Positions 47,461 through 64,000 of a stretch of DNA of 64,000 nt are shown piece by piece. The DNA lies in NCBI GenBank assembly GCA_016839055.1, contig JAEKNX010000001.1, positions 303,693-367,692 on the forward strand, in the 5' to 3' direction. Position 1 is the stretch's first letter, and the number at the start of each line of letters is the position of its first letter. The notes beneath the pieces are model-generated. The model saw nothing but the letters and a program-made list of their open reading frames with translations. It had not been told where the DNA came from and did not search any database. The translations under genes were made by a program, and so were the position numbers. The stretch is from Spirochaetales bacterium. GTDB taxonomy: Bacteria; Spirochaetota; Spirochaetia; UBA9216.

Positions 47461-48927
47461 CTATAGCTGACTTTGAGATCCTACCCGGTATCTTAAATCG
47501 GGATTCTTTACGGCCGCCACCTCATCGGGCCTGCACACAGGTGTTGTAGCCGGAAAATTATGGAAAATTTTCGGTGAACTTTCCGCGAGATCAGCTAATT
47601 TTATCATCTCCTCAATGAAGTTATCGAGGGTTTCCTTTGATTCTGTCTCGGTAGGTTCGACCATGATAGCCTCCCTTACGTTAAGGGGAAAGTAGACTGT
47701 GGGCGGGTGTATGCCGCGGTCTATCAGCGCTTTGGCAAAATCCAGGGCTCTAACGCCTCCGTCGGCGAAGTTTTTTGCCGAGATGACGAACTCATGCAGG
47801 GTTCCGTCGGGAAAGGGAATGTTAAACCGCTCTCTGAGGCGGCTCTTTAGATAATTTGCGTTGAGTACCGCATTCTCACTCGCCTCTATGAGGCCGTCGC
47901 GTCCCATGTAGAGGATGTAGGCATAGGCGCGGAGCAGGATGCCGAAGTTGCCGTAGAAGGGCGATATGTAGCCTATGGAGGACGGTTTTTGGTATTCCAG
48001 GGCGTAGGTTCCGTCATCCCGCATTATTATTCTCGAGGTCGGGAGGAATTCGGCGAGTTCTTTAGTAACACCGACGGGGCCGGCGCCTGGGCCTCCTCCG
48101 CCGTGGGGTGTCGAGAAGGTCTTATGAAGGTTCAGGTGGACAATGTCGAAGCCGAGGTCTCCCGGCCTGGCCTTTCCGAGGATGGCATTCAGGTTTGCCC
48201 CGTCGTAATACATCAGAGCGCCAGATGAGTGCGCGAGCTCTGTTATCTCCTTTATATGAGGATTGAAGATGCCGAGGGTGTTCGGACAGGTAAGCATTAT
48301 GCCGGCGGTCTTCCCGTCGAGGGCCTTACGGTATTCCTCCATGTCCATGACGCCGTTTTTATCGGATTTTATAGTCTTAACCTTGTAGCCGGCAATGGCG
48401 GCACTCGCAGGGTTGGTTCCATGGCCTGAGTCCGGGATGATGATATACTCGCGTTTGTCGCCGCGGGACTTGTGCCAGGCGGCTATGAGCATTACGCCGG
48501 TGAGTTCTCCGTGAGCGCCTGCCATAGGCTGAGTAGTGAATGAATGCATCCCGGTAATCTCAGAGAGCTGTCTCTCGAGGTCGTAGATTACCTGCAGGGC
48601 TCCCTGCGTGAGTATTCCGCCTTTGACCAGCTGCGGCTGAAGAGGGTGTATAGATGCAAAGCTGTCGATGCAGGCTATCTTTTCGGTAAAGCGTGGATTG
48701 TACTTCATCGTGCAGGAACCGAGGGGGTAGAAGTTTGTGTCAATGCAGAAGTTAGTCCTGGACAGACAGGTGTAATGCCTTACAACCTCGGGTTCGGAGA
48801 TGTTCGGCAATCCAGTTGTTCCGGTTCTTAGGTATTGTTTCTCGAGAGCCGCGGCCTGTGGTACATCGCTGTGCGGCAGTTTTATTCCCCGTTTGTCTTC
48901 GCTGGATTTTTCAAATATCAGCTCCAT
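47461..48927 (-). CDS. gcvPB: Glycine dehydrogenase (decarboxylating) subunit 2
   Basis: 488 aa. PLP-binding region ...DIVHLNLHKTFSTPHGGGGPGAGPVG... typical of P-protein subunit 2. Overlaps the gcvPA stop by 10 nt. Confidence 0.9.
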   Translation of the reverse strand: MELIFEKSSEDKRGIKLPHSDVPQAAALEKQYLRTGTTGLPNISEPEVVRHYTCLSRTNFCIDTNFYPLGSCTMKYNPRFTEKIACIDSFASIHPLQPQLVKGGILTQGALQVIYDLERQLSEITGMHSFTTQPMAGAHGELTGVMLIAAWHKSRGDKREYIIIPDSGHGTNPASAAIAGYKVKTIKSDKNGVMDMEEYRKALDGKTAGIMLTCPNTLGIFNPHIKEITELAHSSGALMYYDGANLNAILGKARPGDLGFDIVHLNLHKTFSTPHGGGGPGAGPVGVTKELAEFLPTSRIIMRDDGTYALEYQKPSSIGYISPFYGNFGILLRAYAYILYMGRDGLIEASENAVLNANYLKSRLRERFNIPFPDGTLHEFVISAKNFADGGVRALDFAKALIDRGIHPPTVYFPLNVREAIMVEPTETESKETLDNFIEEMIKLADLAESSPKIFHNFPATTPVCRPDEVAAVKNPDLRYRVGSQSQL

Positions 48928-50258
48928 AATACATCCTCCAGCGCGTCGGTAAAACGTACAATCTCATGCTTGGTTCTTTTTTCGGTAACCGCTATTAGCA
49001 GGTAATTTTCCATGTTTTCGTAATACCTTCCAAGCGGAAAACCTGCTGCTATTCCGCGTTCTATCATCTTTCCGATAACTTCATTTGCGTTAACCGGCAG
49101 CTGTATTGTGAATTCATTGAAGGTCGGCGAGCTTCGCAGAACCTTAACCCCTTTAATCGCCGACAGGGAGTCTTTTGCGAACTCGGCCTTGTCGCGGCAG
49201 AGACTGGCAAGCTCTTTGAGCCCCTTGTCTCCGAGGAGGCTCATATAGAGCAGTGATCGGAGCGCGCAAAGCGACTGGTTAGAGCAGATGTTCGAGGTTG
49301 CCTTCTCTCGCCTTATATGCTGTTCCCTGGTCTGGAAGGTGAGAACATAGGCACGCCTGCCGTTCTTGTCGGTAGTGGCGCCGCAGATTCTGCCGGGCAT
49401 GTTCCTGAGAAACTCCTGTTTAGTGGCCATGAAGCCCAGGTAGGGACCGCCGAATGACAGGGGGATTCCCAGGCTCTGGCCTTCACCTGTTACGATATCG
49501 ACACCTATTTCTCCCGGCGGCTTCAGCATTCCGAGAGATATGGGATAGACACTGGAAATAACGAGGACCCCATTTTCATGGGCTTTTTTAACTATGTCTG
49601 AGTGATCATCCACTGTTCCGAAGAAGTTGGGATTCTGGAGAATTACCGCGGCGGTATCCTTGCCTAGGTGTTTGAAGAGCTCCCCTCGGTCACTCTGGCC
49701 GTGGCAGACAGGAACTTCGGTAAAATCAATGTCGAGATTATGAGTATAACTTCTAACCATCTTGCGGTAGATGGGGCTTACTCCGCCGTCCATCACTATG
49801 CGGTTCCGCTTTGTAATCCTGATGGCCATCATTGCAGCCTCATAGAGGGCCGTTCCGCCGTCATAGAGCGACGCGTTGGACGCGTCCATTCCGGTCAGGC
49901 TGCAGATGCAGCTCTGATATTCATAGATTGCCTGCAGGGTCCCCTGTGAAGCCTCGGGTTGATAGGGAGTGTAGGCGGTGAAAAACTCACCGCGGGAAGA
50001 GAGGCTGTCCACCGCTGCCGGAATATAGTGGTCGTAGAATCCGCCGCCTATAAAATAGGTCAGATTATTGACATTTTTGGCCCCCAGATTCCGAATTGCC
50101 TGCTCAACCTCAAACTCCGATTTCCCCTCAGGAAGATCGAAGGACTTAGCCCTCAGTTCCGGCGGGATTGAACTGAAAAGTTCATCAATCCTGCCGGAGC
50201 ATCCGACAGCCTTGAGCATTTCGTCTCTAGTATCATTTCCATTTGGAACATAACTCAT
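48918..50258 (-). CDS. gcvPA: Glycine dehydrogenase (decarboxylating) subunit 1
   Basis: About 446 aa from the internal Met (MSYVPNGNDTRDEMLKAVG), with P-protein subunit 1 motifs (FTAYTPYQPEASQG). Confidence 0.9.
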   Translation of the reverse strand: MSYVPNGNDTRDEMLKAVGCSGRIDELFSSIPPELRAKSFDLPEGKSEFEVEQAIRNLGAKNVNNLTYFIGGGFYDHYIPAAVDSLSSRGEFFTAYTPYQPEASQGTLQAIYEYQSCICSLTGMDASNASLYDGGTALYEAAMMAIRITKRNRIVMDGGVSPIYRKMVRSYTHNLDIDFTEVPVCHGQSDRGELFKHLGKDTAAVILQNPNFFGTVDDHSDIVKKAHENGVLVISSVYPISLGMLKPPGEIGVDIVTGEGQSLGIPLSFGGPYLGFMATKQEFLRNMPGRICGATTDKNGRRAYVLTFQTREQHIRREKATSNICSNQSLCALRSLLYMSLLGDKGLKELASLCRDKAEFAKDSLSAIKGVKVLRSSPTFNEFTIQLPVNANEVIGKMIERGIAAGFPLGRYYENMENYLLIAVTEKRTKHEIVRFTDALEDVLWS

Positions 50259-50344
50259 GAGTAAACCTCCGATTTCGAAAAAGAGCAACTCTGGATGTGA
50301 ATGCATTTTGTTCCAATAATTATTGCATTCATACAAAAATATCC

Positions 50345-50728
50345 TTAATCGAGACTGTCTATAAACTCCTGATATTCACCCGGGCTGAGAAGCGGTGTAA
50401 TCATTGCTCCGGTAATGCGAATCTTGAAGATCCAGCCGTCGGTGTAGGGCGATTCATTAATCAGTTCCGGTTCATCATCAAGGCGGGAATTTACTTCTAT
50501 TATTTCTCCTGCCGCCGGCGAATAGACTGAACTAACAGCCTTTACAGATTCAAGTGTTACCGGGCTGTCGCCGCCTGAGATGACCTGTCCGACTTCCGGC
50601 AGTTCCACAAAGGTGATATCGCCGAGTTCTTCCTGAGCATAGTCAGTTATTCCTATGATAACCATATTTTCGTCACTTACTTTTAACCATTCATGTTCCC
50701 TGGTATAGGATAATTCTTTCGGCAGCAT
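50345..50728 (-). CDS. gcvH: Glycine cleavage system H protein
   Basis: About 127 aa from the internal Met (MLPKELSYTREHEWLKV). Lipoyl-lysine motif LESVKAVSSVYSP. AAGGAG RBS in the 19-nt gap after gcvT. Confidence 0.9.
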   Translation of the reverse strand: MLPKELSYTREHEWLKVSDENMVIIGITDYAQEELGDITFVELPEVGQVISGGDSPVTLESVKAVSSVYSPAAGEIIEVNSRLDDEPELINESPYTDGWIFKIRITGAMITPLLSPGEYQEFIDSLD

Positions 50729-50747
50729 TTCACTCTCCTTTAGTCGT

Positions 50748-51833
50748 CTACCGTATAAAAGGCAGATCAATTATTACAGCATTTATTTTTGTATCATCTT
50801 TTCTGCATTCGATTATGGTACCGACGGCAGATATTGATTGATCAATCATGGCCAGTCCTATTCCCTTATTCAACATTGGTGAGAATACACCGCTGGTGAC
50901 GACTCCGGCAGGTTTATTATCTTTGTATATTGTAAAGCCTTCACGGGCCGTGCTCCGTCCCGCACAGAGGAAAGGAGTAAGAATCCGGGCGGGCTTATTT
51001 CTAATCTGTCTGATGAGGGCATCTTTTCCGATAAAATCTTTATTGAAATTAACAAAACGCTCGAGATTGGCCTCGATTGGGGTTATTTTATCAGTTATGT
51101 CATAACCGTAAAGTGGCAGCCCTTTCTCAAGTCTCAGTGAGTTCCGGGAACTAAGGCCGGCGGGCTTTACACTATCAACTTCAAGCAGAAGCTCCCAGAT
51201 TGTTACGGCCGATTCAGGCGGCATGAAAAACTCAAATCCCAATTCACCAGTGTAGCCCGTGGTACTTGCTGTCAACTTTATGCCCTCATATTCGAACTCA
51301 ATGAAGGCAAAGCGGTTCATCACAACGAACTCTATATCAGGGAAAACCGACGAAGCTGTTTTAAATGACAGGGGCCCCTGCAAATCGATCTTCGCCGTTT
51401 TATCGGAAATATTAGTAAATGAGGTTGAAGTGGAAAGATGGCTACAGATCCATTCAGCGTCATTAGTAATTCGTGAAGAGTTGACGACAATCATAAACCG
51501 GGTGCAGCTGTATTTAAAGATAATTAAATCATCTATAAAGAAGCCCTCGTCATTTAAAAGAAAACCGTACCGGCATCTTCCAGAACCAAGAGAGGCGAGT
51601 CCGCAGGAGAGAAGGTTTTCAAGATCTTTTTCAGCCTTTTTTCCTTCTATTATGAACTCACCCATGTGACAGATATCAAATATTGAGTTAGCAGATCTTG
51701 TGTGCAAGTGTTCTTTAAGGATGTTGCCGTACATTTCAGGCATTTCCCAGCCGGCGAAGGGCGCCAGCTTGGCATCTATTTTTTTATGGTTTTTATAAAG
51801 CGGAGTTCTATCGAGTTTTTTATTTACAGACAT
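50748..51833 (-). CDS. gcvT: Glycine cleavage system aminomethyltransferase (T protein)
   Basis: 361 aa. N-terminal LYKNHKKIDAKLAPFAGWEMPEMYG and the folate-binding fold motifs of GcvT. First gene of the gcvT-H-PA-PB operon. Confidence 0.9.
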   Translation of the reverse strand: MSVNKKLDRTPLYKNHKKIDAKLAPFAGWEMPEMYGNILKEHLHTRSANSIFDICHMGEFIIEGKKAEKDLENLLSCGLASLGSGRCRYGFLLNDEGFFIDDLIIFKYSCTRFMIVVNSSRITNDAEWICSHLSTSTSFTNISDKTAKIDLQGPLSFKTASSVFPDIEFVVMNRFAFIEFEYEGIKLTASTTGYTGELGFEFFMPPESAVTIWELLLEVDSVKPAGLSSRNSLRLEKGLPLYGYDITDKITPIEANLERFVNFNKDFIGKDALIRQIRNKPARILTPFLCAGRSTAREGFTIYKDNKPAGVVTSGVFSPMLNKGIGLAMIDQSISAVGTIIECRKDDTKINAVIIDLPFIR

Positions 51834-52419: not shown

Positions 52420-52436
52420 AACCAAGCATTACGCAT

Positions 52437-52509
52437 TCCCCTGTAGCTCAGCTGGTAGAGCGGGTGACTGTTAATCACTAGGTCGGCAGTTCGAGTCTGT
52501 CCGGGGGAG
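52437..52509 (+). tRNA. tRNA-Asn (anticodon GUU)
   Basis: 73 nt. Acceptor stem UCCCCUG/CGGGGGA, D-arm GCUC-AGCUGGUA-GAGC, anticodon loop CU-GUU-AA, T-arm GGCAG-UUCGAGU-CUGUC, discriminator G. CCA is not encoded. Confidence 0.85.
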
Positions 52510-52514
52510 AATAG

Positions 52515-52855: not shown

Positions 52856-53983
52856 ATGAAACTAAAGGCTGCTTTGATTCTTGTATTTTTCTGCTTTGGA
52901 TTTTCCGTTTACTCCGACGATAATCATTATGATGTTTTTAACATAATTGAAAAATACAGCCCGCTTTTAAAGGAAGATAGCAACAACTGGACGACAGTCC
53001 ATTGCGTTGCTGCCGAAGGCTCGGCAGGCGAAATGGAAATATTACTGGAATCTGCTGACCTGATAGATGAGGTGGATGCTTTTGGAAACTCCCCGGTTAT
53101 GATTTCAGCCCTTTACGGCAATATTGGGGCCTTCCGTGTCCTTATTGAGAATGGCTGTAGGCTGGACATCCTGAACAGGCGCGGCGGAAGCTGCGCATCA
53201 TACCTTGGTTATTTTAATGATGAGGATATTGATGAAGCCCTCGCGTTGATTGACGAGTATTCTGATATCGACATCCCGACCTCAGGTGAGATGTCCTTGC
53301 TTCATTATGCTGTTCACGGGGGCAACTATGGGCTAACTGCAAAAATTCTCGGATATGGGGTTGATGTCAACCGGGAGGATAGTCGCGGCAGTATGCGGCC
53401 TGTTGATATGGCCCGGTTTATTTCATTTCAATATACCGATGTTGTTGATATTTCCGATGGTGATATAGAGCTGGAAAATATGCTCGTAGATCTTCTCCTT
53501 GATAATGGGTCTAGGAACAAATCTTTTATTCCGATGTCAATTGGTGCCTTCGGCAATTTCTTTTTTAATATTTATATAGCGATTGATTCTCTTCTCGATG
53601 ACGGTCCATCCATGGATGAAGTAAATAGGGGTGAATATTACACTTATAAAGAAGTGAATGGCTCGTTAAATCCTGTAATAGGAATAGAAGCTGTCGGTAA
53701 AATGTTTGAAGACGCCGGATTAAATGTGGAGCTGAAACTGCATAAGCAGAATTTCAAACAGATAATTGATGAATGCAATGATTCAGAAGATCTTTATCTG
53801 ATAATGGCCAACATGTCAGGACATCCATATATTAAAAATCACTGGGTCCTCATTACAACGAGATATCAAACCGGAAGTTACCAGGATTTCCTGAAAGTCT
53901 ATGAATCTTCATCTCTTTTTGCCCCGCTTTTTTACCGGGTAGATGATATCGGTATGATGATAAGCATCAAAGTAAACAATTGA
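52856..53983 (+). CDS. Secreted ankyrin-repeat protein
   Basis: 375 aa. Signal peptide MKLKAALILVFFCFGFSVYS. At least three ANK-like repeats (TTVHCVAAEGSAGEMEILLE..., GNSPVMISALYGNIGAFRVLIENGCRLD, MSLLHYAVHGGNYGLTAKILGYGVDVN). Confidence 0.7.
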   Translation: MKLKAALILVFFCFGFSVYSDDNHYDVFNIIEKYSPLLKEDSNNWTTVHCVAAEGSAGEMEILLESADLIDEVDAFGNSPVMISALYGNIGAFRVLIENGCRLDILNRRGGSCASYLGYFNDEDIDEALALIDEYSDIDIPTSGEMSLLHYAVHGGNYGLTAKILGYGVDVNREDSRGSMRPVDMARFISFQYTDVVDISDGDIELENMLVDLLLDNGSRNKSFIPMSIGAFGNFFFNIYIAIDSLLDDGPSMDEVNRGEYYTYKEVNGSLNPVIGIEAVGKMFEDAGLNVELKLHKQNFKQIIDECNDSEDLYLIMANMSGHPYIKNHWVLITTRYQTGSYQDFLKVYESSSLFAPLFYRVDDIGMMISIKVNN

Positions 53984-53993
53984 GGCGGCTATT

Positions 53994-55025
53994 TTGAAAA
54001 AGACAATAATAACGCTTTTTCTTTTAATATTAGTTTGCCCTCTGTTCAGCGATCCTTTCAGCCTGTTAAACAGCGGTGAATATGCAGCCTATCATGATAC
54101 AAGGGGTGAGCAGGATTTCTTCAGGGCTTACTGGGGCCATAATATAATTGATGTCGGAGCGGCATTTTTTATTAAAAATATTGATAACAAGACGGGCGAG
54201 AGTATAAACTACATGGTACAGCTGCGCAGGACAGAAGATAGAGGTCTTGAGATTGAACAGATTAAGGGGCTTAGCGAAGATGATCCTCCTTTGTTCAAAC
54301 AGTCAATTGTAGACCTCTTGAACTTTATAGACGTTTCGAGTTCCTACAGGACTGACGACGGCGAGAGGGATTTAAACCGGGAAACCTCGAAATATATTGA
54401 AATATATCATTTCGACTCTCATCTTCCTCTGTTCGGTTTCAACAGCATCAGGCTGAGCGGCAGAGCTGAAGAATATAAGCTGACTTCGGCCGGGATGTTT
54501 GACTTAAATGATATAAGTCCTTTTTTTGAATTAAGGCCTGAAGATGAACTTGACATTCCTGCAAGGAGGGGGCTTGGTATTCCTCAAAAGGAGAAGGTCG
54601 AGGCGTTCCTTTTCGATTACAGGCTTGATATAGATTCCAACTGGAGTGAGAATAATGAATCAGGTTATCCGGGATACTGGCTTTCATTATATAGTTTTCG
54701 TGATTCCCAGATTATGCTGGAAAAGGAAAAATGGAGCGATATAGAATCCGCCGGACTCTATAGCATCGACGACTTTATCAGGCAGACCGTCTATTTAACC
54801 GGAGACCGTATTTTTATGGATTCTATGATTTTGGATATAAATAATGGAATATATACGCTTTCTTATTACCTGAATGATTCTAATAACAGCAATAATTATG
54901 TTGAAAGAAAGATCTGGCTCGAGGATGACTATCTCTATATCCTTAATTTTTCGAGTTTTGCCGATATCTACAGGCAGAATCCAGACTACTTTGATGAGAT
55001 TAAAGCATCCTTCAGGAGGAAATAG
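53994..55025 (+). CDS. Secreted hypothetical protein
   Basis: 343 aa. Signal peptide MKKTIITLFLLILVCPLFS. No recognisable domain. Confidence 0.5.
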   Translation: MKKTIITLFLLILVCPLFSDPFSLLNSGEYAAYHDTRGEQDFFRAYWGHNIIDVGAAFFIKNIDNKTGESINYMVQLRRTEDRGLEIEQIKGLSEDDPPLFKQSIVDLLNFIDVSSSYRTDDGERDLNRETSKYIEIYHFDSHLPLFGFNSIRLSGRAEEYKLTSAGMFDLNDISPFFELRPEDELDIPARRGLGIPQKEKVEAFLFDYRLDIDSNWSENNESGYPGYWLSLYSFRDSQIMLEKEKWSDIESAGLYSIDDFIRQTVYLTGDRIFMDSMILDINNGIYTLSYYLNDSNNSNNYVERKIWLEDDYLYILNFSSFADIYRQNPDYFDEIKASFRRK

Positions 55026-55174: not shown

Positions 55175-56308
55175 ATGAATAAAAAGCTGATTATAGTAAT
55201 CTTGATGACTGTGTTCTTTGAATCAATACTTTTTGCCGATTACACGGTAGGAGAAGGCGGTGATTTTGGAACAATTGCCGAGGCGCTCAGCAATGCATCG
55301 ATCGATGAAAAACTTGTTCTGAATCTTATTGATCCTGTTTATACTGAATCGGGGCTGATTATAGAATCGGATGTTGAAATCAACGGGGCATCAGTAGATG
55401 GTACCGTCATTCAGGCTGCCGCACTTCCTGGCATTGCGGAGGACAGAGTCTTTCGAGTTACAGCCGGAGGGCAGGCTGTTTTCAGGGATTTAACAATAAG
55501 AAATGGAAAACCAACCGCAATTCCTCATCGGGGCGGAGGCATCGATAACGAGGGCTTTGTGAGGCTTGAGCGGTGTAACCTCTCAGGGAATGAAGCAGTC
55601 TACGGCGGCGGGATATTTACCCGTGGAAGGGTGGAGCTTGTGGATAGCAGCCTGAGTGGTAACTATACTACTGAGCTGCCCAATGAGCTGATTAATTCCG
55701 GTATCGGATGCAGGGGCAGCGGGGGAGCTATAAAGACTGAGAAGGGCGGAGAACTGATAATTGACGGATGTTCCATCTGGGATAATTACGCTTTCGGTAG
55801 GGGCGGCGGAGTCTTTGTCGCCTGTGAAAGTGCTGCATATATTACTAATACTACAATTGCATCGAATGACTGCAGGCGCAGGGGAGGCGGAATTTACAAT
55901 AATGGCGACCTCTTCCTGAATCATGTGACTATTGCAAATAACTCATCGGTGAAGCGCGGAAGCGGTCTCTGTTCAAGGGGAAGAGCCTCTATGAAGGGGA
56001 CTTTGATAGCAGGAAGCAGTTTTCAGGATTTTTATATTGCCAAAGGGGGCGGTATTTACGGAGAAGGTTTTCTTGAAGTGAACGAGGGCAATTTTGTAGC
56101 CGACGGCAGCCTCGATGGCGCGGCATCAGGAGATCCGAAACTCAAAGCCCTGAAAACTGTAGGCGGCAATCCGCCCTTCATGCCTATCGGAATCTTCAGC
56201 CCGGCAAGGGACGGGCTAATGGCGGAGGACACCCCAGAGAAGGATCAGAGGGGCCGCCTCCGTGGCAGACAGCCTGATATTGGAGCTTACGAGTACGGTT
56301 TGTTTTGA
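55175..56308 (+). CDS. Secreted right-handed parallel beta-helix protein with Pmp-like (polymorphic membrane protein) GGGI/FxxN repeats
   Basis: 377 aa. Signal peptide MNKKLIIVILMTVFFESILFA. Repeated GGGI(D/F/Y)N.G / RGGGVFV / GGAIKT motifs spaced about 20-25 aa apart and many Asn, typical of Pmp/pectate-lyase-like beta-helices. Confidence 0.6.
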   Translation: MNKKLIIVILMTVFFESILFADYTVGEGGDFGTIAEALSNASIDEKLVLNLIDPVYTESGLIIESDVEINGASVDGTVIQAAALPGIAEDRVFRVTAGGQAVFRDLTIRNGKPTAIPHRGGGIDNEGFVRLERCNLSGNEAVYGGGIFTRGRVELVDSSLSGNYTTELPNELINSGIGCRGSGGAIKTEKGGELIIDGCSIWDNYAFGRGGGVFVACESAAYITNTTIASNDCRRRGGGIYNNGDLFLNHVTIANNSSVKRGSGLCSRGRASMKGTLIAGSSFQDFYIAKGGGIYGEGFLEVNEGNFVADGSLDGAASGDPKLKALKTVGGNPPFMPIGIFSPARDGLMAEDTPEKDQRGRLRGRQPDIGAYEYGLF

Positions 56309-56943: not shown

Positions 56944-58161
56944 ATGAAAAACAAACTAGCGGAAATATATGACAGCAGCAGGATAAAAAGTTTTCTTTTT
57001 TCCATGATGCTCTTTGGAATAGTGATAGGACTTTATAACGGAGTTTTTAATAACTATCTTCATGAAATACTCGGACTAACGAAGGCGGAGCGGGGCTGGC
57101 TTGAACTGCCCAGGGAACTTCCGGGACTTCTCATCTTCGCAATCCTTGCTCTTCTTACGAAATTTACCGAAATAAGGCTTATTAAACTTGCGTTTCTCAT
57201 AACTTCTATAGGACTTGCCGGACTCTTTTTTTTCGGAGAGTCAAAGGCGATAGCCATTATTCTTCTTGCAGTGTACAGCACAGGAGAACATATGATGATG
57301 CCTGTCAGGCAGTCTGTTGGCCTTCATATGGCAAAAAGCGGGAAAGAGGGTGCCGCTATGGGGCTTCTCCGCAGTTTCGGCAATGCCGGGCAGGCAATCG
57401 GCTTTTATGTAGGTCCGCTTTTGCTTTTATTAGCAGCCTCTGCCGGCGGCAATTCTTTTTTCAGGTACAGGATAGTCTTTCTCGCCGCCTTTATAATTCT
57501 TGTGACAGCACTCATTGTTTCCTCCTTTTTGAAAAAAGGCAGTGAAAAAGTAAACCGGAAAAAAATTCATATTGATAAAAAATATACACGCTACTACCTT
57601 CTCGAAGTATTTTTCGGAGCCCGCAAGCAAGTCTTTTTAACATTTGCTCCTTACGTACTTATTACCGTCTATGACGCTGGTCCGGGACTTATTTCGATGC
57701 TGTACGGGTTGTGGTCTGTGATTAATATTTTTATCGGCCCGGCTGTAGGCAGGATGATTGACCGCTTCGGTTATAAGAGGGTTCTAATTTTCGACGCGGT
57801 TGTGCTTATATTAATATGTCTTGTCTACGGATTTGCTCATCGGATATTTGCATTCGAAACGGCGTTCATTCTCATCTGCGTAGTTTTTGTGCTTGATGCG
57901 GTAATGTTTGCATTCGGAATGGCCAGGGACATGTATGCAAGAAGCCTTGCTGTTACGAAGGATGAGCTGACATCAACCCTTGCAACAGGACTGTCGGTTA
58001 ATCATCTTGTAAGCATAGTTATTGCAATCTTTGGAGGCTTGCTGTGGGAGAGAATGGGAATGGAGTACCTGTTTACTTTTGCCGCTGTCCTAGGGATGGG
58101 CTCATTGATATTTTCGGCAAAACTACAGAAGCCAGAAAAGACCCTTGAGATGTTACAGTAG
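56944..58161 (+). CDS. Major facilitator superfamily transporter
   Basis: 405 aa, about 12 predicted TM helices. MFS-like loop motifs (GRMIDRFGYKR). Confidence 0.75.
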   Translation: MKNKLAEIYDSSRIKSFLFSMMLFGIVIGLYNGVFNNYLHEILGLTKAERGWLELPRELPGLLIFAILALLTKFTEIRLIKLAFLITSIGLAGLFFFGESKAIAIILLAVYSTGEHMMMPVRQSVGLHMAKSGKEGAAMGLLRSFGNAGQAIGFYVGPLLLLLAASAGGNSFFRYRIVFLAAFIILVTALIVSSFLKKGSEKVNRKKIHIDKKYTRYYLLEVFFGARKQVFLTFAPYVLITVYDAGPGLISMLYGLWSVINIFIGPAVGRMIDRFGYKRVLIFDAVVLILICLVYGFAHRIFAFETAFILICVVFVLDAVMFAFGMARDMYARSLAVTKDELTSTLATGLSVNHLVSIVIAIFGGLLWERMGMEYLFTFAAVLGMGSLIFSAKLQKPEKTLEMLQ

Positions 58162-58977
58162 CAGCCTTTGCGCGTATTCAGGCTGCTCAAGAGTAAGACG
58201 AATAACAGAGAGTTCATCTCCATCGTGTGAACCGTTTATACAGACCGTAGATCCGATTTTCTCAAGCCAGGAGCCTGTCATTCTTGCTGATTCATGGATG
58301 TGTCCATGTAAGGTGAGAAGCGGCTGGCGCTCTTCAATAAAACGTTTTATTGCGATACTGCCGAGGTGTTCATCAAGCAGGACATGATCAATTTTTTGCC
58401 CCTTGAGATCGCCTTTGTCCAGCAGGGTCTTATAGGGCGGGGAATGAAAGAGAAAAATAGAACTGCCTGGAGCCATTTCCAGTGCAAGTGAGTCAAGATC
58501 GTCCTTGATCGTCGTCCATTTACGATCGTTCTCGGATGTCGGGAATGATCTTCTTCCTTCCTCAGGGCTTATACAGCCTAAGTCGGTAAATCTTGAAACA
58601 TCATATCGTTCCCAATCTTTTAAGTAAAAGGGAGTTGGCGGAACAAAGCTGTATCCGAATAAATCATATTTATTCCAATTTAATTTTCTTTGATGAAGAT
58701 ATACCCATAGATTATTCCCTGCACTTATTAAAGATGATTCAAAATATCTCGGATCATCATTTCCCATTATCATAACAACTTTTGGATAGTCATCACCAAG
58801 ATCCTTATGAAGGGACAAGAAATTTGCCATTAAATAATTATGAATAAAATCAGTATCGCCATGATGAAGGCTATCGGAGCCGGGCATGAAGGGCGGAAGG
58901 AGATCTCCTCCGATAAACAGTATTTCGGGCGGCCTCTCACGCAGGTATTTAAATAACGAAAGATACCGCGGCATTTT
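58153..58977 (-). CDS. Calcineurin-like metallophosphoesterase
   Basis: Motifs D-x-H (VTDLHG), GDL (FIGGDLLPPF), GNDD (IMGNDDP), H (LFHSPP) and GH-x-H (LHGHIHESA). The start is taken at the internal Met (GKMPRY) so it does not overlap the upstream gene. Last gene of the three-gene operon with the PPDK_N-like proteins. Confidence 0.75.
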   Translation of the reverse strand, partial: KMPRYLSLFKYLRERPPEILFIGGDLLPPFMPGSDSLHHGDTDFIHNYLMANFLSLHKDLGDDYPKVVMIMGNDDPRYFESSLISAGNNLWVYLHQRKLNWNKYDLFGYSFVPPTPFYLKDWERYDVSRFTDLGCISPEEGRRSFPTSENDRKWTTIKDDLDSLALEMAPGSSIFLFHSPPYKTLLDKGDLKGQKIDHVLLDEHLGSIAIKRFIEERQPLLTLHGHIHESARMTGSWLEKIGSTVCINGSHDGDELSVIRLTLEQPEYAQRLLL

Positions 58978-59005
58978 TCCGTGGAGATCAGTAACAAATA
59001 CTGCC

Positions 59006-62000
59006 TCAGTCACTTTTGTGCCTGAGGGGTAATTCTCTTGCTGAGTCGGTAACAGCATCTATCTTTACAGCAAAACTTGTTCTTTTTTCTATGTCCGAAT
59101 CGGTAATAAGATGTACATCAAGAAGATTATCTGTTTTGTACCCGGTTCTAAGATAATTAATCCGTCCCAGGCAAAGGCTCCAGCCGTCAAGCCATAATAA
59201 AAGTGACTTTTTCTTCTCACAGGAGTCGTCAACATGAATTAGAAGATCAATATCGCTCATAGGACCGGCGTTTGCATTTTTCGTGCTTCCAAAAAGATAA
59301 AAAGCCTTCACTCCAAATTTCTCAACATCAATCGAATCTGCTATTTTCTCAGCCATGGCAAAACGCCAGCTCCAGTAATCTTCCTGTTTATCGGTATGAT
59401 GAGAATATATATCAACGGATGCAGAACTCTCCTGTGATGAAGGCGTAGCAAAATAAGCCAGAGCTTCATTAATATCTTCATTCATAAGAATCCTGAGGAT
59501 TTTTCCTTCTCTTTCTTTCATTACATCGGCTACATAGATTACATCTGATAAATCAGAATATTCAGGGATTAATTCTGACAAAATATTTCCTGAACCGGAA
59601 AGAAAGGTTTTGTTAAAAATGATATCGCTGTCATCCGGGTACAATGGGAGATATTTTATTGAAGATTCAACTAGGTCCTGAAAAAAATGTGTTCCAAATG
59701 AGAGTTCAGGAAGATAATCACCCTTTTTCTGTGCAATTTCAATAAGCATTGCCGTATTGTTAATGTCGGAATAGTTTACCTTGACACCGAGCTTAATATC
59801 CCCCCGGCTTCCCCATCTTCCAGGTCCCATTAAAATGAATCTGCGCTTGGGCAGAAGAGAGTTGATTCGGCTGATTGCCCTTCCTACTCTTTCGAGTTTT
59901 TCAAGAGTATTTAGCGAACTATATGCATCTGGATTAACATAGACAATATTAGTGATGTTATCTATGATTCCGTTGCTTACATGTTTTTTAGCATTGAAAA
60001 GTATACTATTTTCAGAAATATCTTTTGGAATGGGCTGAGGAATGCTGTCTAAAGAACCGGCCTGAGGTCTGCATTGAAGGAGGTAGATCTCTCCCCTGCA
60101 GTATGCAAATTCAATATCTACTTCAGTATGCATTTTGTCTTTGAGTTCATGAAGCATCTGTTTAATCCTGAAAATGAAATCCGTATTTTGAATCAGTGGT
60201 TCAAGTGAAAAAATTAGATCATCATTTTCGAAATCAAGTTGATAGATGTTTTTTGTAAACAGACAATTGTCGGAGAATACAGAAATAAGATTCACTATAT
60301 CAGGATATTGTGAACCATAGGTTCTCAAGATGTTTATCAGGTCGACAGATTCAAATGTATTTGTTTCAAGATTAATAACATCCATCATTTTAGGAGAGTA
60401 TCTAGCTGCTTCTAGAGGATCCGGATTTACCTTGATATCAGGGTTTCCTGGACACAATAAAACAGGATAGTCGTTACTGAGTCTGTCGACAGCCCGCGTG
60501 CCTAGTCCTGGTACTATTCGCAGAAGTCCGTCTTCTTTGTTGATTCTAGGTGACCAGCGATATTCATTTTGACTGAAGCCTACACCCGCGAACGAAGGAA
60601 AGAAATACTTGCCGACCTTTTCTCCTACAACTTCCTGAATAATTATTGCCATCTCCTCATGGAACTCCAGAAGACCATGCTCTTTACGGTACTCAATGGG
60701 GTCTGGTCCTATTGTCGACGCATAGACTTCCGCTACTGCATCCAGGACGGCTTTAAGCCGTTCTTCTTTCGTCCCTTGATTAGCGAGAAACAAACTTTTG
60801 TATTTGCCAGAGAATGCAGTACCGTACCTGTCTTCCAGAAGACTGGAACTTCTAATGATGATTGGCTTGTCCCCCAAATTATCTACAACCATCGACAGTC
60901 CATTGAGTAAATCAATAGGAAAGTTTGAGTTTTTAAAGACCTGAATAAAATTGGGATAATCCGCGCGTACTTCTTCAATGTCCTTGAACTTCTGTTCAAG
61001 CGCCTCTTCAAGATTATTGTAATAAATAAACTTAAGCATGAAATCGGATGAAATATACCATGTCGACGGTGTCATAACCTCTATTCCTGCATTTTTAAGA
61101 AACTGCTCCGCAATGAAGAGCCCGGCGCTTTTCCCGCCTAATTTCCCATGGCTGTTATTGGGATAAACCGAATGCTGTAAGATTGAATAAAAGTCGTCAA
61201 TATCAAGATAATCACGAGAAAATTTTATAAATTCTATCTGATCTGTAAAAAGCCTCTGTATGAAGAGCGAATTTATATTACATCTGGAATAAGAAGATAT
61301 TTCAAAATGGGAATTATTCAGATGATGATACTTTGATACAGCAGCAGAAATTTCTGACAGGGGAGTATCGGTATTTTCAAGAACCTGAACAAGAAATCCT
61401 ATTTTGTCTTCTTTGATCCATTTATTAAGATAGGCCAAAAGTTCGTCATCGCCAAGATTTCGGGAAGCAATTTTAAAGATATGCTGATAGAATTTATCAT
61501 GAATTGAAAAATCTATTTTAAGACTAGGAATATTTACATCTTGAGGAATCATAATATTATCACAACTTTTTTTCATTCCAAGACAACCCAGAATACTCTG
61601 GGCTTCTGCAATACCGAGAAAACATAGACGATTAAGCATCCTTCTGCAGATTCTGTTGAAAAGATTGCTGTCCATTTTTTCAACAAGCTCAAGGATAACC
61701 ATCCAGTCCGCTTTAACATTGCTGTTTATATCCTTGCGGGCTTGTTCCCACTGATCTAAGGAAATCTGAATATCACGCTGGAAGAGGTAATTTTCAATAC
61801 GTTCGGCTATTGAATTTAGAAGCTGTTGTTCTTCAGCAAGAAAAGGGGTGTGAAGGTGGTTATCCCTGTCAATGAAAAAAACTTCAAGACTGCCTACCAA
61901 TTCACCTTTAAGTTTCAATTCAGCTTTTTGAACCCATTTTGATTCAGTAAAATTATCAGATGCAAAAACATCATTTTGATATATTATTCTCACACAGCAG

Positions 62001-62176
62001 TTTTCCGGATACTGCCAGCCCATTGGTATTATTTCAATAAGTTTGGGTAAAACTTCCTTTATTTTCTGTTGGTCCTTATTTACAATTTCCTTGACTTTGT
62101 ATAAACATTGCAGCTCTTTAGCTCTTTCGTTGAGACTCTGCAGAAGATCCTGATTATCATTTCCTTGCTTTTTCAT
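59006..62176 (-). CDS. Large multidomain protein: unknown N-terminal region, PEP-synthase/PPDK N-terminal-like ATP-grasp nucleotide-binding domain, degenerate swivel-like block, and C-terminal Pol-beta-type nucleotidyltransferase domain
   Basis: 1056 aa. PPDK_N-like motifs GKLGGKSAGLFIAEQF, IIRSSSLLEDRYGTAFSGKYKS, PSFAGVGFSQNEY, EVDIEFAYCRGEIYLLQCRPQ. Then ILMGPGRWGS...FGTHFF, shared with the upstream paralogue and lacking the phospho-His. The C-terminal LFGSTKNANAGPMSDIDLLIHVDD is a GS-x10-DxD minimal NTase motif. Confidence 0.7.
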   Translation of the reverse strand: MKKQGNDNQDLLQSLNERAKELQCLYKVKEIVNKDQQKIKEVLPKLIEIIPMGWQYPENCCVRIIYQNDVFASDNFTESKWVQKAELKLKGELVGSLEVFFIDRDNHLHTPFLAEEQQLLNSIAERIENYLFQRDIQISLDQWEQARKDINSNVKADWMVILELVEKMDSNLFNRICRRMLNRLCFLGIAEAQSILGCLGMKKSCDNIMIPQDVNIPSLKIDFSIHDKFYQHIFKIASRNLGDDELLAYLNKWIKEDKIGFLVQVLENTDTPLSEISAAVSKYHHLNNSHFEISSYSRCNINSLFIQRLFTDQIEFIKFSRDYLDIDDFYSILQHSVYPNNSHGKLGGKSAGLFIAEQFLKNAGIEVMTPSTWYISSDFMLKFIYYNNLEEALEQKFKDIEEVRADYPNFIQVFKNSNFPIDLLNGLSMVVDNLGDKPIIIRSSSLLEDRYGTAFSGKYKSLFLANQGTKEERLKAVLDAVAEVYASTIGPDPIEYRKEHGLLEFHEEMAIIIQEVVGEKVGKYFFPSFAGVGFSQNEYRWSPRINKEDGLLRIVPGLGTRAVDRLSNDYPVLLCPGNPDIKVNPDPLEAARYSPKMMDVINLETNTFESVDLINILRTYGSQYPDIVNLISVFSDNCLFTKNIYQLDFENDDLIFSLEPLIQNTDFIFRIKQMLHELKDKMHTEVDIEFAYCRGEIYLLQCRPQAGSLDSIPQPIPKDISENSILFNAKKHVSNGIIDNITNIVYVNPDAYSSLNTLEKLERVGRAISRINSLLPKRRFILMGPGRWGSRGDIKLGVKVNYSDINNTAMLIEIAQKKGDYLPELSFGTHFFQDLVESSIKYLPLYPDDSDIIFNKTFLSGSGNILSELIPEYSDLSDVIYVADVMKEREGKILRILMNEDINEALAYFATPSSQESSASVDIYSHHTDKQEDYWSWRFAMAEKIADSIDVEKFGVKAFYLFGSTKNANAGPMSDIDLLIHVDDSCEKKKSLLLWLDGWSLCLGRINYLRTGYKTDNLLDVHLITDSDIEKRTSFAVKIDAVTDSARELPLRHKSD

Positions 62177-63879
62177 AGGACAATTATTCCTTTATGTTTC
62201 CTTCCATCTACTAATATTTTAATACTTTTGGGGGATCTTATGTGATTAAAAAACCGGCCGGAATGTATTACTTCCTGTTTTGAAATCCAGTCATAGTTCA
62301 GAAATCCCTTATCATTTGGATTCTGCTCATCTATGGATAAATATGGGAGTCCCGTATTGAGTATATTATGAAAAAAATGTGACCCCTGACTGAGTGCAGG
62401 ATTCATGTCCTCTTTTGTTGATTCAATAATGACACCGGCAGCTGAAATTTGGCTCCAGTTTACAGGAATCCCAAGTGCGGGGTCGGAGCTGCCCCAGCGT
62501 CCAAAGCCCGCTAAAATGTATTTACGTCCATTTTCAATAAAACATCTGTTTATTTTTTCAAGCTCAAGCGGAAATTCCGCGGTTCTCATGGGATCGAATT
62601 TCGAAGGCTCTATATATACAATATCATTTATATCTTCTATTACAGCATTGCCTAAGGCATTTTCTGAATAAACAATAATATCTTCTCTATCGAGATTGAA
62701 TATGGAAGAATCAAGGTTTACGAAGGAGGATTTCATCGGTCTAATCTGAAGAAATGCAAAATTTGCTTTTATATCGTTTGCTTGGTCAATATTAACCGCA
62801 AATTCAATTTCAATGTCGGAGCCGGATTTTTTTTTGAATTGATCAAGGATCTCTATAATCAATTCATTGAATTCAATAATTCGGCCTTTTAGCACCGGTG
62901 AAAAATCTATAAGCCTGAATCCGCTGGGTCGCAGTCCCATTTCAAGCCGGTCTGAAGAAATAGAGTATGTAGAACATAAATTACATAAACTATTGTCTCG
63001 CTCAAGTATTTTCAGGGGGAGCTTGACCATGTATTCCGTCTCAGAGAAAGGATTCTTTTTTTCCGGGGGATATAGATCTATGGCCCAGAATTCAGTCTGA
63101 CCGGCATCAAGAAGGTTTTTCATAGATGCCGGAGGAGGCACTTCCGGTTCGGCCGGATTGTAAAACCATTTTTTCCCACCGTCGACAATCGATTTACCAA
63201 GACCTGCTGCAAGTTCCACAACACCGTCCTCGGCTTTTCCATTACTGAAAGGGTAATAGTTAAACGATCTGCCGACGCCTGCGAAATCCGGATAAAAATA
63301 GTTATTTCTTTTCATGCCATGAACAGATTGGATAATTACTGCCATTTTTTCAATATTGATATCTATCCCCGCCGCATTGAAGCAATCAACAGAAGACTTA
63401 AACCATGTAGAGGCATATACGAATTTCACGGCATTAATTAAGTCTAAGAATCTGACATTCGGATCAGGGTTATTATTAGGAATCATTTTAGTCGCGAAAA
63501 CACCGGCGAAAGGTTTATTAAGAGAATCTTCAGTAAGACTGGAAGAGCGAATAGCTATGGGCCCCTTAAGGGAATTCGATAAAAGGCGAATTGCGCCAAT
63601 CAAGGTAACCGGAAACGAAGATTTCTGAAAAATGAGTGATAGCTGACTATCGGATTTATCCAGAAAAAGTTCCGGGCTTAGCTTGTTTTCTTTTATAAAT
63701 AGATCAAAAACATCAGAAAGCAGTATTGTCATAGGCGGAACACCTATTCTGATTCCTTTATAGATATATTCAGGAAAAATATCTTGAAGACAGGAGTTTA
63801 TTCTGATTAATCCGGAGCCTTTGCCTCCAGGAGAGCCGCTTCCTATAAATGATATTGGAGAAAAGTAATGGTTTTCCAA
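62173..63879 (-). CDS. PEP-synthase/PPDK N-terminal-like ATP-grasp protein (paralogue of the downstream gene, no NTase domain)
   Basis: 568 aa. SGSPGGKGSGLIRIN, IAIRSSSLTEDSLNKPFAGVFATK, PDFAGVGRSFNYY, DIEIEFAVN...FAFLQIRP are PPDK_N-like. The C-terminal ILAGFGRWGSSDPALGIPVNW...QGSHFF block matches the paralogue. TTG start with an AGGAG RBS. Its stop overlaps the start of the 1056-aa gene. Confidence 0.7.
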   Translation of the reverse strand: MENHYFSPISFIGSGSPGGKGSGLIRINSCLQDIFPEYIYKGIRIGVPPMTILLSDVFDLFIKENKLSPELFLDKSDSQLSLIFQKSSFPVTLIGAIRLLSNSLKGPIAIRSSSLTEDSLNKPFAGVFATKMIPNNNPDPNVRFLDLINAVKFVYASTWFKSSVDCFNAAGIDINIEKMAVIIQSVHGMKRNNYFYPDFAGVGRSFNYYPFSNGKAEDGVVELAAGLGKSIVDGGKKWFYNPAEPEVPPPASMKNLLDAGQTEFWAIDLYPPEKKNPFSETEYMVKLPLKILERDNSLCNLCSTYSISSDRLEMGLRPSGFRLIDFSPVLKGRIIEFNELIIEILDQFKKKSGSDIEIEFAVNIDQANDIKANFAFLQIRPMKSSFVNLDSSIFNLDREDIIVYSENALGNAVIEDINDIVYIEPSKFDPMRTAEFPLELEKINRCFIENGRKYILAGFGRWGSSDPALGIPVNWSQISAAGVIIESTKEDMNPALSQGSHFFHNILNTGLPYLSIDEQNPNDKGFLNYDWISKQEVIHSGRFFNHIRSPKSIKILVDGRKHKGIIVL

Positions 63880-64000
63880 TGTTCGCTCCTGAAAATGCCG
63901 GATTTATAACAATCCGGCTATATTTTAATTATACCCAACCCCGCTGCTTGCAAGCTTCCGCCACACGGGTTATTGAAATAATATAGGCGGAATCCCGCAT

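Follow-up and report, generated by a model that had tools for sequence, protein, structure and literature searches.

What do two adjacent enzymes built around the ATP-grasp domain of phosphoenolpyruvate (PEP) synthase, one of them fused to a nucleotidyltransferase (NTase), do beside a phosphoesterase, and on what do the three act? The question arises in a 64,000-nt stretch of the genome of a Spirochaetales bacterium (GCA_016839055.1, contig JAEKNX010000001.1, positions 303,693 to 367,692 of the forward strand; hereafter, the window), where three open reading frames (ORFs) lie in the same orientation on the minus strand: gene A (568 aa; 62173-63879), gene B (1056 aa; 59006-62176), and gene C (301 aa; 58153-59058). 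A first-pass annotation made from the sequence had delimited these ORFs correctly and described them as a three-gene operon, which proves incomplete: the conserved unit is gdh-A-B(-C), led by a gene for glutamate dehydrogenase (GDH) that the window edge cuts. We tentatively read the cluster as a sensor-controlled writer (A and B) and an eraser (C) of a covalent modification of GDH, an interpretation to which we assign somewhat less than an even chance.

Carbon and nitrogen metabolism meet at GDH, and, to our knowledge, almost nothing is known about its post-translational switching in bacteria outside a few model organisms. The cluster itself is uncharacterized and is misannotated as "PEP synthase" or "pyruvate phosphate dikinase" (PPDK). 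Many of its carriers (Spirochaetota, the FCB and PVC groups, Acidobacteriota, and others) are dominant in anaerobic digesters, sediments, and soils.

A glutamate dehydrogenase gene leads the cluster

The window ends 121 nt upstream of A, and the reading frame cut by its edge (63929-64000, minus strand; the last 23 codons and a stop) translates to ...MRDSAYIISITRVAEACKQRGWV*. This peptide is identical at 19 of 23 positions to the C-terminus of a 428-aa ELFV_dehydrog protein encoded directly ahead of A in a related spirochaete (locus L089; loci are cited by our own L numbers), whose B orthologue is 75% identical and in which a major facilitator superfamily (MFS) transporter and methyltransferase pair lies downstream of C, as in the window. 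On this alignment, we identify the window-edge frame as the C-terminus of GDH. The first-pass annotation overlooked this context because the window stops there; we read the gdh region beyond the edge from orthologous loci of 75% and 70% identity.

To place the cluster in a broader frame, we assembled 84 loci (4 by exact-protein look-up and 80 from a scan of one genome per GTDB species) and located GDH, A, B, and C in each by tblastn; a match to B was confirmed in at least 590 GTDB species genomes. Of the 77 loci that could be evaluated, 75 have a gdh gene no more than 3 kb upstream of B, and in 72 the two genes share a strand. In 64 of 79 loci, A immediately precedes B; in 14, B follows gdh directly, without A; and several lineages encode A and B, in that order, as a single protein of ~1620 aa. 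Of 71 loci, 45 have C at most 1.5 kb downstream of B: it is convergent with B in 38 (the gap is often 2 to 40 nt) and co-directional in 7, as it is in the window. All-against-all clustering of the ORFs of the 84 loci yielded no conserved family besides A/B, GDH, and C. The first-pass annotation had made its proposal depend on synteny in relatives, and both the A-B and the gdh linkages are indeed conserved over this set.

The gdh-led four-gene cluster is kept across more than a dozen bacterial phyla: carriers belong to the Spirochaetota, Cloacimonadota, Calditrichota, Ignavibacteria, Planctomycetota, and Acidobacteriota, as well as to the Zixibacteria, Eisenbacteria, Krumholzibacteriota, Fermentibacteria, Bacteroidota, and Myxococcales. 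Between these phyla, B (4697 homologues) retains 46 to 53% identity over its full length. This conservation is that of a housekeeping gene and not of an accessory island, and an important function is implied because a protein of 1056 aa evolves so slowly across phyla. Near-universal linkage to gdh is the strongest clue to that function, and it points to nitrogen or glutamate metabolism.

The first-pass annotation had instead placed the genes at the distal end of an accessory region next to tRNA-Asn. An accessory, mobile, or defense module would agree with some local features: the G+C content of the cluster (0.36 to 0.40) is below the window mean, the tRNA-Asn gene is 5.6 kb away, and PADLOC returns weak matches for the NTase of B (PDC-S09, 4.7e-6) and for C (PDC-S10, 1.2e-9). 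We nevertheless consider such a module very unlikely, as it is largely refuted by synteny: identity across phyla is 50% or more over the full length of the proteins, conservation is vertical, and the position beside a housekeeping gene is fixed. The flanking window genes (a glycine-cleavage operon and genes for an ankyrin protein, a beta-helix protein, a methyltransferase, and an MFS transporter) include no integrase or transposase, and the related spirochaete shares the downstream synteny. The PADLOC matches cover only generic catalytic cores, and A has none. We therefore rejected membership in a known anti-phage system, given partial and weak matches to candidate singletons on the one hand and housekeeping-type conservation on the other.

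The GDH proteins linked to the cluster are 65 to 77% identical to the spirochaete one. Their best solved relative is the enzyme of Thermococcus profundus (1euz; E, 7.5e-123), followed by RocG/GudB, and their catalytic motifs are intact in the orthologous loci (the window shows only the last 23 aa); the linked GDH is a canonical hexameric enzyme, homologous over its full length, with the catalytic Lys/Gly-rich motif and the Rossmann domain. Linked GDHs (e.g., L002:6979-8265) also have two small conserved insertions in the dinucleotide-binding domain, cVscWDQ.dqtsy.frk and kA..lGYEvL, and several conserved Cys residues; both the insertions and the Cys residues are absent from 1euz and from GdhA-type paralogues.

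ATP-grasp domains without the partner domains of dikinases

Genes A and B are translationally coupled paralogues, as the first-pass annotation had proposed: they overlap by ATGA, and their products are 28% identical over 529 aa (E, 1e-44), a similarity that extends through the block of GRWGS and HFF motifs described below. Translation of A is assigned to a TTG start codon preceded by an AGGAG Shine-Dalgarno sequence. Pfam bears out the domains named on first pass (two PPDK_N ATP-grasp domains, a Pol-beta-type NTase, and a calcineurin-like phosphoesterase). The PPDK_N domain of A (aa 18-384; 62728-63828, minus strand), which is also supported by alignment and by structure match, scores 2.9e-24, and that of B (aa 345-718; 60023-61144, minus strand), supported by alignment and Foldseek, scores 3.9e-50. 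The sequence motifs quoted on first pass are all present and are invariant in alignments of 20 and 24 sequences. The invariant residues are GGK (18-20), RSSS.ED (111-118), E357/E359, and Q378/R380 in A, and GGK (347-349), RSSSLLEDR (442-450), D687/E689, and Q701/R703 in B, such that the Lys, the Arg, and the Glu/Gln/Arg ligands of Mg and phosphate expected of a PPDK_N domain are conserved in both proteins.

Beyond this domain, the resemblance to dikinases ends. Neither protein matches the PEP-utilizers domain (PF00391) or, in agreement with the first-pass annotation, the PEP-binding TIM barrel (PF02896) in Pfam at E ≤ 1, and NCBIfam models for PEP synthase, PigC, and rifampin phosphotransferase (RPH) reach 20 to 50 bits against cut-offs of 600 to 1300. 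Sequence searches of the PDB with A, B, and C returned no match. At the level of structure, Foldseek aligns B with rifampin phosphotransferase (5e-11) and with HpeI and PPDK, the RPH alignments being restricted to the ATP-grasp, and no acceptor-substrate domain (TIM barrel or rifampin-binding-like) appears in A or B by Pfam or structural alignment. The AlphaFold2 (AF2) model of A is of high quality (pLDDT, 87; pTM, 0.88), and that of B is of medium quality (pLDDT, 75), with its lowest confidence in the most conserved loops (448-459, 787-809, and 817-840).

That A and B are ordinary, divergent paralogues of PEP synthase, PPDK, or rifampin phosphotransferase is what the database names of their homologues would suggest ("pyruvate, phosphate dikinase," "pyruvate, water dikinase," "phosphoenolpyruvate synthase"), as would the strong PPDK_N match. 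The names are misleading, and the idea has a negligible chance of being right: it is refuted by domain content, given the distant NCBIfam scores, the lack of PEP-utilizers and PEP-utilizers_C domains, and the lack of a PDB sequence match, and it leaves the additional NTase and sensor domains unaccounted for. A full-length match to a characterized member of these families, which the first-pass annotation had named as grounds for withdrawing its view, was not seen. Compared with RPH-Lm, PEP synthase, and PPDK, A and B share the ATP-grasp domain only and fail two of the three defining features that can be tested in sequence; the PF00391 swivel and the TIM barrel or rifampin-binding domain are not detectable, whereas sensor, helical, and NTase domains are added and the C-terminal domain is modeled as rigidly docked.

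A parallel in gene layout comes from the two-component small-molecule dikinases (HpeHI and phenylphosphate synthase), whose dikinase machinery is likewise distributed over two adjacent genes. HpeHI is a small-molecule dikinase, and its HpeI subunit consists of the ATP-grasp alone (PMC12167813); HpeI is among the top structural matches of the ATP-grasp domain in Foldseek. In HpeHI, however, the second subunit has the swivel His and the substrate site, whereas A and B each have an ATP-grasp and the domain that follows it. They are paralogues and not complementary halves, and their context is gdh and not aromatic catabolism. A is a paralogue without sensor or NTase that pairs with B, fused to it in some lineages and dispensable in others.

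A domain with an invariant histidine follows the ATP-grasp

After the ATP-grasp, A (aa 392-568; 62176-62706, minus strand; alignment and AF2 model) and B (aa 722-912; 59441-60013, minus strand; alignment) share a domain that we call GRWG/HFF after its motifs. In A these are GFGRWGS (458-464), D466, E486, and SQGSHFF (497-503), and in B they are PGRWGSRGD (785-793) and SFGTHFFQDLVE (826-837). Invariant across the family are Gly-Arg-Trp-Gly, Asp, Leu-Gly, Glu, Ser-x-Gly-x-His-Phe-Phe, and Tyr. The first-pass annotation held that this block has no His; its own G(S/T)HFF motif contains one, His501 in A (codon 62377-62379) and His830 in B (codon 59687-59689), and this residue never varies in A or B or in a third subfamily of paralogues.

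The domain has some likeness to the mobile, swiveling phospho-His domain of PEP-utilizing enzymes: it comes after the ATP-grasp, its His is at the N-terminus of a helix in the AF2 model of A, and its order of strands and helices resembles that of the mobile domain. We considered it as a divergent member of that family and rejected the assignment on uniformly negative results. The signature GG.T[SC]HAA of PF00391 is lacking, Pfam gives no PF00391 match at E ≤ 10, a GRWG/HFF profile search against the PDB finds nothing, and Foldseek finds no match to Enzyme I. Two hhalign runs were negative as well, including one in which 147 GRWG/HFF copies were compared with 6 genuine mobile domains, their sequences drawn from PDB alignments (probability, 0.3%). 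Because these homology tests failed, we treat GRWG/HFF as a new domain with an invariant His. In the model of A (pTM, 0.88), it is docked rigidly on the ATP-grasp and not tethered; a relay of phosphoryl groups through its His, as in dikinases, would be one possible role.

A nucleotidyltransferase on B and a separate phosphoesterase

The C-terminus of B (aa ~933-1056; 59009-59380, minus strand) is a minimal NTase of the Pol-beta type by Pfam, NCBIfam, Foldseek, and alignment. It matches NTP_transf_2 (PF01909; 5.8e-7) and Polbeta (PF18765; 4.4e-6), both above gathering scores, and it has the expected G[SG]-x9-12-[DE]x[DE] motif and third carboxylate as invariant residues (G963-S964-x10-D975-I-D977 and D1020). 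The Pol-beta fold, on which the first-pass annotation had staked its reading, is supported by Foldseek matches to the structures of MNT antitoxins (8xeh_E, 8xeo_B, 7bxo, and 7ae9_G), and these antitoxins are the closest relatives of the C-terminal ~120 aa of B. MNT antitoxins AMPylate protein Tyr residues. B does not belong to a HEPN-MNT system: its match to the NCBIfam MntA model (9.8e-5) reaches 22.2 bits against a cut-off of 60, the cluster has no HEPN partner gene, and the NTase, unlike stand-alone MntA, is fused to a 930-aa enzyme.

Gene C, assigned from its ORF, Pfam match (Metallophos, PF00149; 6.1e-8), and motifs, overlaps B by 53 nt from its ATG start and by 8 nt from an alternative GTG start. 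Motifs DxH, GD, GNDD, H, and GHxH are conserved in 42 homologues, making the product a calcineurin-like metallophosphoesterase. Its motif III reads GNDD where GNH[DE] is usual, it has a strictly conserved PPTPF.LKDWERYD insert, and it has no solved relative detectable by sequence; it forms a distinct metallophosphoesterase subfamily.

A signaling sensor at the N-terminus of B

The N-terminal ~330 aa of B, described on first pass as being of unknown type, resolve into two parts. The second of these (aa ~155-335; 61172-61714, minus strand), all-helical by AF2 secondary structure, indeed has no family match in Pfam. The first (aa ~11-146; 61739-62146, minus strand) is a widespread GAF-like signaling sensor, recognized by profile matches. 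Its motif is LNERAKELQCLY...IPMGWQYP...PFL.EE (in the family form, LNER.KEL.CLY...IP.GWQYP...PFL.EE), and Pfam has no model for it. At E ≤ 1e-3, 8301 representative proteins contain matches, frequently as 2 to 5 tandem copies; the other domains of these proteins are Pkinase (Ser/Thr), MCPsignal, HAMP/GGDEF, GerE (LuxR-HTH), PAS, GAF, and HisKA. In Foldseek, the module also weakly resembles the GAF domain of 6ob8, a dual-sensor kinase.

The same module recurs next to gdh in other phyla: histidine kinases encoded just upstream of gdh in L003 (2260-2700), L025, L033, and L063 contain it. In L003, an NtrC-type sigma54 activator accompanies the kinase, and gdh itself is preceded, at a distance of 54 nt, by a sigma54-like site; the same type of sensor is therefore shared by the operon's transcriptional regulator and by B. 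The sites themselves are TGGCAC-N5-ATGCG at -54 in L003 (4850-4900) and TGGCAT-N5-TTGCA at -55 in L012. A sigma54 promoter as a general feature upstream of gdh was rejected, such sites being present in only 4 of 67 loci.

Receiver domains in a third paralogue

A third family of paralogues, of ~1000 aa, combines receiver, receiver-like, and linker regions with PPDK_N and GRWG/HFF and lacks the NTase (L001:12156-15143, minus strand; L087:6001-8958; L085; L086; and L088). The family has as many members and is as well conserved as those of A and B, and it is annotated as "phosphoenolpyruvate synthase" or "CheY-like." Near some A/B loci, its neighbors are a C homologue and a gene for a GdhA-type GDH. 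A gene pair for LexA and a Y-family polymerase (IMS) precedes it in L085 and L088.

Replacement of the GAF-like sensor by receiver domains is typical of regulatory and not of metabolic enzymes, which favors modification of GDH over a role for A and B as its metabolic partners. In the latter case, A and B would act on a substrate or cofactor of GDH (phosphorylation of NAD(H) or of a 2-oxo acid would be an example) or couple ATP hydrolysis, and C would be a phosphatase. Gene arrangement points to co-transcription with gdh, and the vSCWDQ... insertion conserved in linked GDHs is near a dinucleotide-binding strand, both of which such a partnership would accommodate. PEP synthase phosphorylates a 2-oxo acid, a precedent in its favor. 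We still regard the partnership as improbable: pathway enzymes seldom have sensor or receiver domains, the TIM barrel that would bind a 2-oxo acid is missing, the MNT-type NTase is not a fold of cofactor biosynthesis, and some lineages drop A or C.

Possible functions: reversible modification of glutamate dehydrogenase or a small-molecule signal

If the cluster does modify GDH, the sensor module of B, a signal-regulated enzyme with two active sites, would read a ligand that reports nitrogen or carbon status, and A and B, acting as a sensor-gated complex, would spend ATP to place a phosphoryl and/or a nucleotidyl group on GDH. The GRWG/HFF domain would provide an acceptor or phospho-carrier site, and C would remove the modification, with GDH activity tracking the nitrogen/2-oxoglutarate status of the cell. 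Read at the level of sequence, several features are consistent with this scheme: the 75/77 linkage to gdh, the fusions of A with B, a normal GDH, and the intact catalytic residues of the ATP-grasp, the NTase, and C. Further support comes from the likeness of the NTase to the protein-AMPylating MNT antitoxins, from the signaling sensor on B, and from the recurrence of that sensor near gdh. The general idea of the first-pass annotation, a modification or signaling module distinct from PEP synthase and PPDK, holds up, but the targets that it suggested (a small molecule, a glycan, or a nucleic acid) missed the linkage to gdh.

Its small-molecule option does survive as the main rival explanation, which we rate as possible but doubtful. 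PPDK_N and GRWG/HFF would then (pyro)phosphorylate a small molecule (ATP → AMP + Pi + X-P), to which the NTase of B may add a nucleotidyl group; the sensors would set the level of the product, C would hydrolyze it, and its effect on GDH or nitrogen metabolism would be allosteric. A single catalytic module with alternative sensors (GAF-like or receiver) and a dedicated phosphoesterase is the pattern of a second messenger, the receiver-type paralogue often occurs without GDH, and all characterized relatives of the ATP-grasp (rifampin phosphotransferase, HpeHI [PMC12167813], PEP synthase, and PPDK) act on small molecules or glucans. Against this rival, A and B have no recognizable small-molecule-binding domain (TIM barrel or rifampin-binding-like), a 75/77 linkage is tighter than would be expected for a diffusible signal, and the neighborhoods of the 84 loci contain no conserved candidate for a receptor or effector.

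Several points weigh against covalent modification of GDH. Gene linkage, which suggests GDH as the substrate, is equally compatible with a metabolic or an allosteric connection. Gene A is absent from 15 of 79 loci and C from 26 of 71. GRWG/HFF shows no detectable homology to the phospho-His swivel domain and packs rigidly in the model, leaving a dikinase-type His relay hypothetical. In the literature, no covalent regulation of this type of GDH has been reported in these phyla. Finally, in an unbiased sample of the receiver-type paralogue, GDH or C is nearby in one of four loci and the other three have no GDH neighbor; because the paralogue stands without GDH in these three, the catalytic module is not intrinsically GDH specific. 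The notion that the whole family is GDH specific, which came from loci near A/B, was dropped on this count. The A/B pair, unlike the catalytic module at large, is tied to GDH.

Precedents for modifying a central enzyme exist. GlnE, which acts on glutamine synthetase, uses Pol-beta-type NTase domains, and AceK is the kinase/phosphatase of isocitrate dehydrogenase. The likeness would be one of logic, in that a large multidomain enzyme is encoded with, or dedicated to, a single central enzyme, whose reversible modification it adjusts to metabolic status. Past the generic NTase fold there is no sequence relationship; the present cluster uses an ATP-grasp module, its GDH target is putative, and removal would fall to a separate metallophosphoesterase and not to a second domain of the same protein.

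Sensor control of a phosphotransfer enzyme has a parallel in Enzyme I-Ntr (EI-Ntr, PtsP), whose N-terminal GAF sensor reads glutamine (PMC4848567). There, too, a GAF sensor controls an enzyme of the PEP-utilizing superfamily that has a protein substrate and a link to nitrogen status. EI-Ntr differs in having a TIM barrel and a genuine swivel His domain, through which it uses PEP, and in lacking both ATP-grasp and NTase; B has no detectable domain of the EI type by Foldseek, including no Enzyme I match. Full-text literature searches found no description of the cluster architecture or of a GDH-linked dikinase or NTase, in keeping with the first-pass view that no system of this architecture has been characterized.

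We advance with caution, and clearly short of an even chance, the broader proposal that the cluster constitutes a previously unrecognized, phylum-spanning post-translational control of GDH, in which a sensor-gated A/B complex phosphorylates and/or AMPylates the enzyme by means of its ATP-grasp, GRWG/HFF, and NTase modules and a dedicated metallophosphoesterase reverses the change. If true, GDH would have its own equivalent of the GlnE/glutamine synthetase cycle, assembled from wholly different components, and the ATP-grasp lineage of PEP synthase would gain its first member that acts on a protein. Solving the cluster would reveal a new mechanism by which nitrogen assimilation or amino-acid fermentation is regulated, assign a function to two widespread domains that have no model (GRWG/HFF and the "ERAKELNCLY" sensor module, the latter found in more than 8000 protein clusters), and correct the annotation of thousands of proteins.

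The gdh-A spacer and neighboring genes

The 50-nt spacer between gdh and A contains an inverted repeat, GCCGGATT-GTTATA-AATCCGGC (63897-63918, minus strand), which forms a hairpin with a perfect 8-bp stem followed by a weak T-run. It is a candidate partial terminator or attenuator, by which transcription continuing from gdh into A, B, and C might be reduced. L002, with a spacer of 5 nt, does not conserve the hairpin, and no riboswitch or other known RNA element was found in the window or in 7 loci.

At the other end of the cluster, C (58153-59058, minus strand) and the convergent MFS transporter gene (56944-58161, plus strand) overlap by 9 bp at their 3' ends. The interval between tRNA-Asn (52436-52510) and the cluster encodes, on the plus strand, an ankyrin-repeat protein (52856-53983), a 343-aa protein with a signal-peptide-like N-terminus and no family match (53994-55025), and a right-handed beta-helix protein (55175-56308). 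Just upstream of tRNA-Asn are the glycine-cleavage genes gcvT, a 141-aa ORF at the gcvH position, gcvPA, and gcvPB (47461-51833, minus strand); glycine cleavage is another ammonia-releasing amino-acid pathway, and its location near the gdh cluster is probably a coincidence.

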